The notes: a model not told the origin generated them from the letters alone. 64,000 bases of DNA from Eledone cirrhosa (GCA_964016885.1 OZ024742.1:124868001-124932000); one strand, 5' to 3'; positions 3,359-63,169 are shown, counted from the stretch's first letter. Program-made: numbers and translations.

Positions 3359-4275
3359 AAATTTCAAGTTATCAATAATGTAGTGATAATATATCGTCAC
3401 CTTAGAGATGAACAGCGTACGTGTACGTTTACTCAACGAGTATAAATTATATTCCGGAGAAAATGTAGAAAAGATGAATATAAAATGAAAGTACTTTTAT
3501 AAAAGAATTTATTAGTATTATGAAATCCAAAAATATTTTATTAAATAACAGAATAGAGTGATCGTTATACTGTAACCATCGCTTGAAATCTACATTTTCA
3601 TATTACACACGCTACCAGCTTTGAACGCCTGCCTCCATCTCCGTTTGATTGTCAAAATACATATTAACATTCTCTATTAGTCTTAATTATATCAACCCTT
3701 GTATTCTTTACCATTTAATATAAACTGCTATAGATAAAATGAGATTTCTTAATTCAATTCCCTAATGCATATACCAGCAGGCTACCAGCATTGTTGTTAT
3801 ACAGTAGCAGTGAAAATCTCCCTCTTCCTTACTTGACACTTTATATCTGTATTAATACTACTACACCAAACGACCAGCCCTGTCCATTATTCAATTGGTC
3901 AAATATAGATTAAACTAGGCACTCCCAAACATTCTTATTTATATAAAATAAGCCATATACTCATTGTATTCTCATTAAAAACCTTCTATATACTTGTTTA
4001 CCAGCAAATTGAATTGCCATCTGTCATATACTATCCCTACTCTTCTTCCTTTCTTACAACTAATATAAATACTTCAATTTTTCTGATTTTTTTCTAATTT
4101 ATCCAATATCTCTGAAGAGGTGACAACTGATTATACATTTGCTATCGAATACTTGCTAACATTATATGATTACGCAAAAAGCGATACATAGGTATTCCGT
4201 CTGTTACAGAAACATATGTCAATACCTAATAAATTCCTTTATAAAAGAACTTTCATTTTATATTCATCTTTTCTA
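3359..4275. mobile_element. Non-coding PLE 3' end remnant with partial inverted repeat (3466-3518 vs 4222-4275) between (TA)n tracts
   Basis: tagaaaagatgaatataaaatgaaagt is the reverse complement of actttcattttatattcatcttttcta. Contains an HHR-like core. Confidence 0.6.
4105..4225 (+). ncRNA. Degenerate hammerhead ribozyme with long stem II
   Basis: CTGAAGA g gtgaca...tgttac a GAAAC ATAT GTC; stem III is palindromic (ACATATGT); stem I is poorly paired. Confidence 0.5.
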
Positions 4276-4319
4276 TATATATATATATATATATATATAT
4301 ATATATATATATATATATA

Positions 4320-4755
4320 CGGGGTAACAAATTATTGTTATAAGTAGTCCATTTAAGTGTAGTCCAGTTATGGTACTCCGGTTAGTGGATGATATCAACG
4401 CTTGGCTAAGTTTGACTCAACAAGGCGTCTCCATAATGATGTTGCGAGTACGCTGTAATTCCTATGTTGTAAACACTTGGAATAATGATAAATCAGGAAA
4501 GAAGAGTGACACGGTTTGCAATACAAAAAAGGTTTTTAATCTCATTGGTGACAATTGTTTCTCTGAACTGGTAGGTCTAGAGATCGCTACCCGCTTGTTT
4601 TCACGTTATTCGATCACCAATACAAAGTTATAACCAGTCAATTCAACAAAAGGGTAGCGATCTTTAGACCTACCAGTTCAGAGAAACATTTGTCACCAAT
4701 GAAATTAAAAACCTTTTTTGTGTGCAACCCGTGTCACTCTTTTTTCCTGATTTAT
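4320..4755 (-). mobile_element. Small foldback PLE remnant (arms 4488-4592 / 4652-4755, tail 4320-4487)
   Basis: ~100 bp inverted repeat containing the HHR half GAAAC AATT GTC, flanked by (TA)n. Confidence 0.65.
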
Positions 4756-4761
4756 ATATAT

Positions 4762-5105
4762 ACACCTGTCCCCACATCACCAACAACACCACCTTCCAGG
4801 GTCCCAACGGCCACTCTCTCTCTGTCCGGCATGCCTTCCGCTGCACCTCCTCCAACCTAGTCTACGACTTATGACGGACAGACAGGACGTCGCCTGGCGA
4901 ACCGATTCACTGAGCACCTCCGGGATATTCGTCTCGGGGGTAGTTCCCCCATCGCCCGCCACTTTGGTGTCCCTGGACATTCCGCACGCCATCTCACAGT
5001 CTGTGGCCTACTCCAGTGCCACGGAACACCCGCCAATCGCCTTAATGTCGAACAACGAACCATCTTCATCTTACAGACCCACACTCCCCCCAGCCTGAAC
5101 TCCCC
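4762..5105 (+). pseudogene. GIY-YIG endonuclease remnant of a Neptune-like PLE (not in the ORF track)
   Basis: Manual translation: TCPHITNNTTFQGPNGHSLSVRHAFRCTSSNLVY / YDGQTGRRLANRFTEHLRDIRLGGSSPIARHF..GHS...RLNVEQRTIFILQTHTPPSLN, with an internal deletion or frameshift. Confidence 0.85.
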
Positions 5106-6660
5106 ACCCTTATTCCTTTAGCCTTCGACCGCCCCCTCCCCCCACACATATCCCCCACTAACACCACTAACACCCCCCCCCCCCCCTTTTTTCACCGCCC
5201 ACCCCACAACTAACAATACTAACATCTCCACTCCACCCTTCCTCTGACCACCCTTCCCCAACTAACATACTAACATCCCTCCCTTCTTCTCCTCCTCCCC
5301 CCTCCTTATCACACGCACACACCCACCGGCACATATATACACGCGCTCACACTAAACACACACCCTCTACCACCACTAACCCTCACCGCCACACCTCTCC
5401 TCCCCACACCTCCATCCCACCACCCCGCAACTAACCCCACTAACAACGCCTAACCCCAAGCACACGAACACACGCACCCACTTACACCACCCACCCCACA
5501 CGCAACTAACATCACTAACACCCCCAACCCCACGCACACTTACCCACACACCCTCGTACACCACTAACTCTAAACACGCTACCACCACTAACCCTCACTC
5601 ACACCTGCATTCAACCCCTCCCCACCTCCCGTATACTAACACCCACTAACACCCCTTCATCAAACTACACACACACACCAGTACACCACACTCCCTCCAT
5701 AGAACCACACACACCCTTCTCTCCCCGCTCCACCCACACCCTCTCTCCACACTCACTCATCCCACTAACACCTCTACTAATACACACACACACACCCTCC
5801 TCACTCCAACTTTCACACCTACCCATCCTCGCCCATTTACCATTCCACCGACTGCTGCTATGCCCTCTGACCACCTCCCAGCACAAACAGACACACAGCA
5901 CTCCCACTGCTTGACCACTTCCTGTTGCGCGCGCACCCCACATCTCTCCTCTTCCGACCATCGCTTCATGGAATACCTGCACGCAGAAATTGACCAACCC
6001 AGAATCCACTAAACACATTTGGAATTTACCTACTTTTCAACCATCCTCTTACGTAATCACCTATATAACTCACCCACACACACACCCCCAAAACATTTTT
6101 TTCTCCACACGCCACCTACACCCACAACACGCTTAAACCCCACACACACGTGCTTTCCACCACATATTTACACCCTCAGCCTCCTGATTCCTCTCCCCCA
6201 CCCCTCTATCCACACACGCACAGACACTCCGACCCACAAACACCCCCACACACACCTCTTCCTGAACATGCAACACCGTTCTTCCCCCAACCCTTACTTT
6301 CACATACACACACACACACACACACACACACACACACACACACACACGTACACCTACACACACACACACCACCTTCAGCCCTCCCCGCTCGGACACCCCG
6401 TCTCCCTCTCCCCACTCCACCCGCCACCACCCCTACACACCCCACACCCTTCCACCACCTGTTTTACCCCCCTTTTAATTTCAGTTTATTTTGATCATGC
6501 TTTTATATTTAAATTTATTTCCTTCCTTGTACATTGATCATGCTTTATTTTTATTTTTATCTTTATTTTTTTTATTTTTTCATTCGCACCGTTTCCTTTC
6601 GCTATATGTCTCTCCACCACTCCCCTACACACCCTTTGAACTCTGTTCCCACACACTTCT

Positions 6661-6694
6661 CACCTGAGGAAGGGCTTATGCCCGAAACGTCGTC
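6661..6694 (+). ncRNA. Minimal (dimer-type) hammerhead ribozyme
   Basis: ac CTGAGGA a GGGC ttat GCCC GAAAC GTC gt; stem III is palindromic (ACGT); stem I has only 2 bp. Confidence 0.7.
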
Positions 6695-6884
6695 CCCCAC
6701 CAACACCCCACACTCCAGAGCGTGAAATTAATAAACATTCGTTGTACTGCCTCTCTGTTTTGTCCCTGTTCAAATTTTTCCATTATATATATATATATAT
6801 ATATATATATATATATATATATATATATATATATATGTGTTTGTGTGTGTGTGTGAGTGTGTGTGCGTGTGTGTGTGTTTGTGT

Positions 6885-61200: not shown

Positions 61201-62204
61201 TGCATCAGTTGACGTGAATATCAACAGCGCCAATCTTATTAATCGCGCAAATAGACTGGCCATAGGCCCTTCTTCCAGACCCAGCAAATAAAAAAGGGAA
61301 TGTCAGTAATTGTATAGATAAAACATCTCGTCGTACTTTGTTGAAAGAGCAACAGACTTTTCAGAGTTGATTACAGCTTTCGCTCATATACATAGGTGAA
61401 ATATATAGATAAAATATAGGTGAAATATGGATAATCAACAACTTACCTTTAACTATGACAAGATTGATGTTTATTCGGAAAGCTGTACAAAAGAATGATT
61501 TACCTATTTTTTCTCTTAAATAATTGCTAAGCACTTTCTATAAAATAATGAATGTATGCAACATTCGAATCATTAATGTTAAATGAAAGTGTCATATATT
61601 GTTAACATAGAATTTCTTAGAAAAGGCTGCTTTAAAAGATTAAATTTACTCATCTACCAACATAGTCTATACACTTTTTGACTTTAGACTAAATCCATAT
61701 AGAACTATCTTCCGCAATTGGACCAAATGTTTCGATTAATTACCAGCTCCCCTAAGACAAGTAGAACAGATAAATTTAAGCAAGCTGTCATTTAATATTG
61801 CATTCGGTTAAGCGCAGATTTTATACACTTACATCTACTAAATGACAGATTCTAAATACATATTTATTTCACATGCTATCCACTGCCATCGTGCCGGCTA
61901 CAAAACCAGACTTTTTCCTTAAGCACAAACATTCAATTTTCTGTGAAATTAATTATTAATTTCTTCAAACTATTCACGTGTTCGTTACAAGCTGGTAATA
62001 ATTACCACTGAGATGTTTCTGAATTATTTCCTCTGAGAGCCAAATTTCAATTCTCTTTTTTGCGTAACCACATGAAGTATATATATATATATATATATAT
62101 ATAAAGGATCGATCGACTTTCGTCAAATCGGACCGAGGAAACAATGTTTCCGTTGGTCTTTCCAGTTGCTAGTACTATCTATCCGTCGCAACTCCAGGTA
62201 GAAG

Positions 62205-62312
62205 GAGCAACGTGAAATAAAGTGTCTTGCTCAAGGACATAACGCATCGCCCCGTCCAGGAATCGAACTCACAACCTCAAGATTGTGACTCCAATTCTCT
62301 AACCATTAAGCC
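62205..62312 (-). mobile_element. CORE-like SINE head
   Basis: aagtgtcttgctcaaggaca...ggaatcgaactc...ctaaccattaagcca. Confidence 0.75.
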
Positions 62313-62626
62313 ATATATATATATATATGTATATGTATATATATATATGTATATGTATATATATGTATATGTGTATGTATATATATATATATATATATAT
62401 ATATATATATATATATATATATATATATATATATATATATATATATATATATATATATATATATATATATATATATATATATATATATATATATATATAT
62501 ATATATATATATATATATATATATATATATATATATATATATATATATATATATATATATATATATATATATATATATATATATATATAATATAAGATCA
62601 AAGGATGGTTAAAGGAGTTCAATATA

Positions 62627-62693
62627 TTTTATTATGCGCATTTCAAAAACAAACATCATCAAACAATAATATTTGTGTTTTCATCAGATAAAA
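62627..62693 (-). ncRNA. Hammerhead ribozyme (mirror copy)
   Basis: Exact reverse complement of 62818-62884. Confidence 0.8.
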
Positions 62694-62817
62694 CAGGAGA
62701 ACATGATATGAAGGCTAAAAAAACACTTGTTGATAGTGCAGTTTTAAATCAACATATGTTGATTTAAAACTGCACTATCAACAAGTGTTTTTTTAGCCTT
62801 CATATCATGTTCTCCTG

Positions 62818-62884
62818 TTTTATCTGATGAAAACACAAATATTATTGTTTGATGATGTTTGTTTTTGAAATGCGCATAATAAAA
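62818..62884 (+). ncRNA. Hammerhead ribozyme, intact
   Basis: ttttat CTGATGA aaacacaaat...gtttgttttt GAAA TGCGCA TA ataaaa; 6-bp stem I; palindromic stem III; AUA triplet. Confidence 0.82.
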
Positions 62885-63169
62885 TATATTGAACTCCTTT
62901 AACCATCTTTTGATCTTATATTATGCATACTCCAGTCCCACAAACTGTAGAGTGCTTCTTATCCGATATCTGCATTGCTTTATTGTACTACAATAAAACT
63001 CACCTCCTACATATATATATATATATATATATATATATATATATATATATATATAAATATATATATATATATATATATATATATATATATATATATATAT
63101 ATATATATATATATATATATATATATATATATATATAAATATATATATATATATATATATATATAATAG

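Follow-up and report, generated by a model that had tools for sequence, protein, structure and literature searches.

A 64,000-nucleotide stretch of the Eledone cirrhosa genome (GCA_964016885.1 OZ024742.1:124868001-124932000), hereafter the window, contains eight loci at which two inverted arms are flanked by (TA)n and a tail is present on one side only. The loci, labelled F1-F8 in window order, are members of multi-copy families of Penelope-like elements (PLEs); numbers preceded by L denote copies fetched from the same 3.0-Gb genome. Comparison of arms and junctions among these copies indicates that the palindromes were probably made at insertion, by priming of reverse transcription from both ends of the target break on one RNA.

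Organization of the eight loci

Self-BLAST and reading of the sequence revealed the TA-flanked inverted arms and the one-sided tail at all eight loci (Table 1), in agreement with the original prediction; the tails, given there as about 40-170 nt, measure 39-171 nt. Other details had to be revised. F1, F2 and F3 are oriented on the minus strand, and F7 ends at ~41975 rather than at 41940. The sequences of the loci were described as unrelated, which does not hold for F2 and F6 (67 % akin). The tail-less arm of F1 measures ~755 nt versus ~160 nt for its tailed counterpart, and that of F7 extends 69 nt further 5'. The postulated routine production of palindromic mini-elements (minis) devoid of open reading frames (ORFs) was supported, except that F4 and F6 carry ORF pieces for reverse transcriptase (RT) and GIY-YIG.

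The arms of F4 overlap by 7 nt (18292-18298), and the 3' untranslated region (UTR) in its tailed arm is rich in microsatellites. The F2 copy lacks the family core CCGATGA, the core position being located just 5' of the copy. The centre of F5 (~25622-25628) lies at the inferred start site and its left arm has a 7-nt core deletion, F6 contains an inverted filler (38311-38385) representing a copy of 38599-38673, and the two arms of F8 are unlike at a hypervariable site.

Table 1. Coordinates of the eight palindromic PLE loci and their parts in the window (pLTR, pseudo-long terminal repeat)
Feature	Position	Strand	Description
F1 tailed arm	3360..3519	-	arm ~160 nt; 57-nt pLTR end and ~103-nt tail ending at (TA)n
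F1 tail-less arm	3520..4273	+	~755 nt; 5' side ~700 nt beyond tailed arm
F1 paired segments	3463-3519/4221-4278		57 nt, 93 % identity
F1 hammerhead-like motif	~4100-4225		in tail-less arm; bulged stem I, fails descriptor
F2 mini	4320..4755	-	tailed arm 4320-4645, tail 4320-4487, tail-less arm 4645-4755
F2 paired region	4488-4755		82 % identity
F3 decayed solo-pLTR palindrome	6885..7146	-	tail ~63 nt; core mutated in window copy, family hammerhead canonical
F3 paired region	6950-7145		72 % identity, decayed
F4 tail-less inverted arm	14459..18298	-	ends at fixed internal site; hammerhead 14526-14672
F4 tailed arm	18292..23402	+	5'-truncated Hydra-type PLE; ORF piece 18279-19571, hammerhead 23051-23205, tail 23269-23402
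F4 paired segments	14459-18298/19588-23268		98 % identity
F5 solo-pLTR palindrome of Neptune-type PLE	25435..25857	+	hammerhead 25659-25697, tail ~39 nt
F5 paired region	25435-25817		94 % identity
F6 5'-truncated, frameshifted Hydra-type PLE	38177..41223	+	tail-less arm 38177-38321, tail 41064-41223
F6 paired segments	38183-38321/40926-41063		90 % identity
F6 decayed hammerhead	~40905-41020
F7 insertion	41242..41975	+	tail-less arm 41242-41555, templated fillers 41556-41615, tailed arm 41616-41975
F7 paired segments	41238-41485/41616-41862		98 % identity
F7 hammerheads	41294-41372; 41728-41806	-; +
F8 solo-pLTR palindrome of Hydra-type PLE	62587..63010	+	zero-spacer centre 62750-62761, tail 62922-63010
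F8 paired region	62587-62921		99 % identity
F8 hammerheads	62625-62695; 62816-62886	-; +

Family assignment

Hydra-type ORFs were identified for F1, F2, F4, F6 and F8 on the basis of the signature of Craig et al. 2021 (DKT, CxCX5C, CxxC/CxH; PMC8557442). Open frames comprising RT and GIY-YIG are present in F4 (831 aa, L239) and F8 (821 aa, L038), and only ORF pieces in F1, F2, F5 and F6. The frames of F4 and F8 display YRDD and YIG/YFG as well as DKT, the CxCX5C linker, CxxC and CxH, and they lack GxKF/Y and CX2-5CxxC; the place of the N-terminal RWK motif of Hydra elements is taken by RWR in F4 and by RWT/RWI in F8. CxCX5C was also found in the ORF pieces of F1, F2 and F6, and Hydra-type GIY-YIG ORF pieces lie upstream in the F1 family. 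Since a Pfam search did not recognise the Hydra-type ORFs, including that of L038, the assignment rests on motifs. Direct pLTRs occur in L036, L246 and L252, inverted arms and tails throughout, and insertion into (TA)n, a criterion of the Hydra clade, is likewise observed. The F4 unit is long (~6.7 kb) owing to its microsatellite-rich 3' UTR.

The pLTR of F5 is the 3' end of a Neptune-type element, upstream of which broken ORF pieces encode CX4CxxC and YVG (L291/L292). F7 is a retrozyme-like, ORF-less unit of ~522 nt with a type I hammerhead; all 8 extended loci contain it in head-to-tail arrangement, mostly as 1.3-1.8 units and with no adjoining PLE ORF. For F3, a 3' UTR lies upstream and no parent ORF could be established. 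The minis of F3, F5 and F8 consist of a solo pLTR, the tail and an inverted pLTR. Together with the hammerhead matches given below, the family ORFs support the proposed PLE origin with hammerheads in the pLTR; the objects are new, the clades already known.

An older relative of F4, 91 % alike over the ORF, is located at 43988-48891 (minus strand); it contains a hammerhead (44050-44190), its 3' UTR comprises tandem units, and no inverted arm was seen.

Hammerhead motifs

Hammerheads were searched with a type I descriptor (stem I of at least 4 bp) replacing a stricter one which had missed motifs with a long stem II. Ten matches were obtained in the window versus 0.65 per shuffle, seven of which lie inside the eight loci: on both arms of F4, F7 and F8 and on the tailed arm of F5 only. 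A complete motif, predicted for every locus, is thereby confirmed in four of the eight and missing from the window copies of F1, F2, F3 and F6. Those of F2, F3 and F6 are decayed or devoid of the core, although their families have the hammerhead: descriptor matches were found in 16/20 (F2), 42/50 (F3), 25/25 (F4), 26/30 (F5), 23/25 (F6), 29/30 (F7) and 18/19 (F8) loci, while F1 fails. An Rfam scan of the window did not detect these motifs and returned microsatellite-driven microRNA hits only, plus one sub-threshold Hammerhead_1 match elsewhere (29.1 bits). The latter, at 43610-43647, is one of three window hammerheads outside the eight loci, the others being at 32973-33097 and 13605-13649 (all minus strand). 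The TTGAAAA (U3-A8) variant of the core, known from PMC4209133, is present in hammerheads at L006:2112-2407 and L219:2270-2701.

Stem III is palindromic in F1, F2, F4, F5, F6, F7 and F8 and a plain hairpin in F3. When four hammerheads were folded as single strands, they did no better than shuffled sequences (z -0.3 to -1.3). Hammerhead cleavage as the source of the element ends was rejected, as the cleavage sites (+124, +73, +69, +105 and +113) coincide with no boundary.

Palindromes beyond the window

The palindromic layout is real and very common. A census of L001-L289 (1.35 Mb including duplicates; unselected flanks of the fetched loci) yielded 220 palindrome hits. Excluding hits whose centre was that of the fetched element reduced them to 119, and discarding overlaps and edge cases left 79. 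Fifty-six of these 79, grouping into 30 clusters, have one end flush with (TA)n and a tail of 25-223 nt at the other, versus 5.6 % of 2370 length-matched random intervals; this proportion is not a genome-wide rate, because the flanks are repeat-rich and 2 of the 56 derive from fetched F7 arrays. Symmetric palindromes number at most four. At least 3 nt of alternating TA mark the internal arm end in 22 of the 37 exactly registered palindromes among the 56 (background 7.6 %), in line with the TA motif originally noted at this end. A hammerhead is present on the sense arm of 17/56 palindromes and in antisense in none, compared with 0/1120 shuffles. The commonest mini in the census (12/56; L045:1809-1934 and 11 further loci) is a palindrome of 112-134 nt with a 77-nt tail, in which the hammerhead scan found no core.

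Genome searches returned 2228 (F1), 2813 (F2), 2370 (F3), 759 (F4), 270 (F5), 4689 (F6), 2816 (F7) and at least 163 (F8) matches as first-look candidates, 40 of which were scored per family. The value for F8 is a lower bound, since short F8 queries found nothing, very common words probably having been skipped.

Outer ends and target sites

Outer ends were mapped in the young family F4 on 39 fetched copies and the window copy, comprising 26 two-armed copies, 10 one-armed within 10 kb and 4 complex copies excluded from the comparison. In 18 of 19 mapped copies, the end of the tail-less arm lies 134 nt short of that of the tail. F8 copies in which no inverted partner is in view (L036, L037, L038) have their 3' end at this internal site as well, and public contigs contain the internal end of F5 joined to TA. 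Microhomology of 2-5 nt to (TA)n is present at both outer ends, as expected from the TA microhomology proposed for both junctions. Target-site duplications (TSDs) of 14-15 bp enclose the whole F3 palindrome in 3 of 27 copies with informative flanks, the rest being microsatellite-flanked. No common structure was apparent in folds around the two priming sites. Family-specific repeats directly follow the tails of F3 ((CA)n; L151-L170, L260-L289) and F5 ((TC)n; L051-L080), which suggests stuttering at RT initiation, reminiscent of telomerase.

Agreement and independence of the two arms

Judged from their shared variants, the two arms of a copy appear to derive from a single source and to have been made anew at every insertion. 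In F4, all 321 polymorphic sites present on both arms agree, where 117 mismatches would be expected under random pairing; private variants are confined to one arm in 50 cases and present on both in 25. Shared single-nucleotide polymorphisms of F8 agree between the arms in 267 of 292 cases and differ in 25. The centres do not follow the haplotypes: L072, L074 and L077 have the same haplotype and unlike centres, and pairs sharing a centre are no closer to each other than randomly chosen ones (F5, 5-9 versus a mean of 7.2; F8, 11-24 versus 13.8). The only pair found to share both centre and flanks is a segmental duplicate of an F2 palindrome (L132/L136, C13). Whole palindromes are therefore not the copied unit.

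One site of the F8 pLTR behaves differently. Positions +153-157 (window ~62906-62910; L001-L050) exist in three states (CCTTT, CTTTT and CTTT), all of which occur on both arms, and agree between the arms in 8 of 24 pairs, 9.0 being expected if they were independent. Five loci have CCTTT on the tail-less and CTTTT on the tailed arm. If CCTTT was the source, the change would lengthen the run met first by RT on sense RNA; an RT pause, a modified base, editing or re-cutting may be the cause. F5 has a weaker GGA/GAA analogue of this site.

The F8 palindrome L020:1538-1880 combines arms of two subfamily haplotypes at 6 linked sites, and the arms of L053 differ at 2 subfamily sites, suggesting that some copies had two templates or underwent conversion later.

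Inner ends and palindrome centres

At its 5' side, the tail-less arm is longer in 9 of the 26 two-armed F4 copies (by 126-5267 nt), shorter in 16 and about equal in 1; it also extends further 5' in the window copies of F1 (~700 nt) and F7 (69 nt). Among 20 F5 centres, obtained with a query favouring copies with an intact tailed arm, the tailed arm is more complete in 10 and the tail-less arm in 8, with 2 unresolved. Exact mirror pairs exist in F5, i.e., +1/+4 (three) versus +4/+1 (two) and +1/+6 versus +6/+1; as fold-backs, these centres would require a 1-nt loop. The commonest F8 centre is a perfect ATAT overlap with zero loop.

Of 37 F8 arm ends at +1, 15 are within the perfect ATAT overlap and 22 are free. 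Thirteen of the 22 free ends (3 of them ambiguous) have a G in place of the parental C, the count of 10/19 corresponding to p=3e-4, and in L006, L014 and L048 the extra G is present on both arms. It may be read as a copied cap, by analogy with capped full-length L1 insertions, of which an extra G is a mark (PMC11702581). TATA boxes are located upstream of the recurring 5' end in F5 (-31), F6 (-31) and F2 (-33), and the recurring centres likely map promoters. If a centre is a transcription start, element-driven transcripts would run outward and form no hairpins; double-stranded hairpin RNA would need read-through from outside.

At F4 centres, the arms overlap by 1-7 nt, or by more in L223 and L229, or are linked by short templated fills, as would be expected from microhomology-mediated end joining; microhomology with templated fill is a signature of polymerase theta. 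Short, snap-back-like inverted fillers occur at the centres of F6 (38311-38385) and L236. Zero-spacer palindromes remain in old F3 copies and in the 983-nt centre of L034, hence centres are not quickly deleted. Contigs from four public runs of one study, possibly of the sample used for the assembly, contain one opposite-strand joint at the F8 start; contig depth, which is not a copy number and from which no count was drawn, rises at the inferred start and falls after the tail.

Origin of the palindromes

Two-ended priming at insertion, on one RNA, is the probable origin of the palindromes, a reading built on family membership, fixed outer ends, independent inner ends, matching arm haplotypes and the microhomology or templated fill at the centres. 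The element endonuclease would make a staggered cut of both strands in (TA)n, yielding two DNA 3' ends, one of which would anneal and prime RT at the tail end of the RNA and the other at the fixed internal TAT/ATA site. Both cDNAs would extend toward the RNA 5' end and stop independently or at the cap; where the RNA starts in the pLTR and both are extended up to its capped 5' end, minis of 260-440 nt would result. The cDNA 3' ends would then anneal through 1-7 nt, be filled in and joined head-to-head, so that each could prime the second strand of the other. As the pairing of a tailed with a tail-less arm is near-universal (56 versus at most 4), the two primings are likely coupled in one complex, most simply by one RNA being read twice. 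That the arms are independent and carry an extra G at the sense start points to two sense-RNA-templated cDNAs; on the sequence evidence, neither arm appears to have been copied from the other. The minis are probably dead ends derived from ORF-bearing or tandem masters, because they have neither an upstream TATA box nor the sequence beyond the tail that the Anolis PLE Poseidon (PAc) needs in vitro (PMC11167929).

Whether PLEs routinely integrate by such symmetric two-ended target-primed reverse transcription (TPRT), with a dimeric RT-endonuclease, two programmed RNA sites and mutual second-strand priming, is in our view an evenly balanced question. If they do, this process alone would explain the tail, the inverted pLTR and the many cap-terminated mini-palindromes with two hammerheads throughout Hydra, Neptune and retrozyme-like families, and a third mode of integration would stand beside LINE TPRT and integrase-based insertion.

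Several points weigh against two-ended priming on one RNA. The evidence consists of genomic end products, with no observed intermediate, and deletion of centres after snap-back could alone yield longer tail-less arms. The tailed arm is the longer one more often in F4 (16 versus 9), short inverted fillers do occur (F6, L236), snap-back is documented for R2 cDNA (PMC11371274), and the start sites of PAc show no strand preference (PMC11167929), whereas they appear coupled here. Only 2 copies of F5 have the extra G, and its presence at 9 of 24 free ends in F3 is muddied by microhomology; the recurring 5' ends of F8 and F3 have no TATA box within 45 nt. Agreement between the arms is weaker in the older F3 (95 versus 24) and in F5 (217 versus 31, including the misaligned L079), the variable positions of F8 could represent a DNA-level hot spot acting after insertion, and a search for such a hypervariable site in F4 found none. 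The two-haplotype arms of L020 are left unexplained by one RNA read twice.

The main rival is the mechanism of the original prediction, akin to the self-priming of PMC3846280, in which a single cDNA snaps back on itself and is copied again before a TA motif links it to the target; in this rival, later centre deletions would give rise to the copies with a longer tail-less arm. It would account for the shared haplotypes of the arms, the rule of one tailed and one tail-less arm (56 versus at most 4 symmetric), the longer tailed arm in 16 of 26 F4 copies and the inverted fillers of F6 and L236, and has the precedent of R2 (PMC11371274). As the main route it is nevertheless unlikely. Tail-less arms often hold sequence absent from their partners, the loops would be of zero or one base with mirror-image centres, the extra G is found on tail-less arms as well as on both arms together, the F8 hot-spot states are independent between the arms, the internal site is also used as a primary 3' end, and the persistence of zero-spacer centres (old F3; 983 nt in L034) speaks against quick deletion. 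The main step proposed originally is thus probably wrong; folding back survives as the source of short fillers (38311-38385 in F6; L236) and, combined with centre deletion, as a competitor of low probability.

Somewhat less plausible still is a variant of the favoured model, two-ended priming on two RNAs from the same locus, possibly paired via the self-complementary stem III. Dimeric folding of PLE hammerheads has been proposed (PMC4209133), seven of the families have a palindromic stem III, the hot-spot states are independent, and the arms of L020 and L053 differ at 6 linked and 2 subfamily sites, respectively. However, no discordant site was observed among 321 in F4 although several variants co-exist, the coupling of tail and no tail is harder to account for, chimeric arms could reflect later gene conversion, and stem III of F3 is a plain hairpin.

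That the minis are a self-propagating, non-autonomous class copied as entire hairpins, the mobile palindromic unit of the original prediction, is very improbable. Hundreds to thousands of first-look candidates per family and the recurrence of some centres would fit such a class, but centres are not inherited with the haplotype (L072, L074, L077), same-centre pairs are no closer than random ones in F5 and F8, shared centre and flanks were found in the segmental duplicate only, an upstream TATA box is missing, and F7, although non-autonomous, has a monomer in direct tandem as its unit. Palindromes rich in AT can arise artificially, but a long-read fold-back or assembly artefact is hardly credible here, given private differences between the arms (50 one-arm variants in F4), one-sided tails, TSDs, and both the joint of an internal end to TA and the opposite-strand F8 joint in the public contigs.

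Relation to known systems

The inverted 5'-truncated copy, the one-sided tail and the (TA)n bias have been published for PLEs (PMC8557442). The Hydra-clade elements described there share C-terminal GIY-YIG, DKT, the CxCX5C linker, CxxC, CxH, the pLTR hammerhead, (TA)n targets and partial tandems with those studied here; they differ in having RWK (RWR/RWT/RWI here), sizes mostly <3 kb (~6.7 kb per unit in F4) and tails of 30-40 nt (25-223 nt here). The Penelope elements of Adineta vaga (Arkhipova et al. 2013, PMC3846280) are similar in their head-to-head arrangement, optional tail, TSD around the whole unit and solo pLTRs; their junction palindromes were, in contrast, attributed to self-priming, the template probably being antisense. 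Pairs of hammerheads that lie on opposite strands and are separated by 100-700 bp have likewise been reported (PMC4209133).

In vitro, PAc cuts and extends both strands of an AT-rich target from two RT start sites bounding the tail, with a predicted dimer and with hammerhead cleavage dispensable (Frangieh et al. 2024, PMC11167929). The two fixed outer ends found here match these start sites; the accessible text of that study, however, makes no link to inverted repeats, and its lack of strand preference differs from the apparent coupling in the present elements. Twin priming of L1 also involves priming of RT from both target ends, end-joined cDNAs and retention of the TSD, but there the second primer acts beside the stop of the first cDNA, resulting in inversion without duplication (PMC11702581). 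In the PLEs studied here both primings are located near the 3' end at fixed sites, and inverted duplication is the common outcome. Twin priming itself was reportedly first described by Ostertag and Kazazian in 2001.

Non-LTR retrozymes (PMC7229834; bioRxiv 10.64898/2026.07.22.740005) resemble F7 in the ORF-less head-to-tail unit of ~522 nt and the type I hammerhead. F7 differs in that its insertions bear the PLE signature of tail and inverted arm, which is direct evidence of PLE-type integration and ties retrozyme-like units directly to the PLE integration machinery. The minis of F3, F5 and F8, unlike retrozymes, are solo pLTRs and not tandem units.

The origin of the tandem or inverted ends and of the tail has been named an open problem (PMC8557442, PMC11167929), and no proposal of two-ended (two-cDNA) priming for PLE inverted repeats was found in the parts of the papers examined. 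Two-ended priming would explain the long-unexplained shape of this class of elements. Should the model be true, second-strand synthesis of PLEs would be solved by cDNA-cDNA priming, and thousands of apparent miniature inverted-repeat transposable elements or microRNA-like hairpins would have to be annotated as PLE by-products. The genome offers many young copies, the junctions of which separate the models and give exact predictions for the existing in vitro system.

Further elements of the window

A Neptune-type PLE ORF in two frames is located at 8302-11192 (plus strand; GLKF, DKG, YLDD and CX4CxxC; Pfam RVT_1), and PLE ORF pieces lie at 351-1190 (minus strand). A further inverted repeat with 117-nt arms (96 %) is present at 49905-50239, its ends not being flush with (TA)n. 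Frameshifted LINE-type RT fragments were detected at 51029-52605 (plus strand; Pfam RVT_1), and positions 1-130 and 1209-3331 are occupied by a G-rich minisatellite of ~20-40 nt with inverted blocks.

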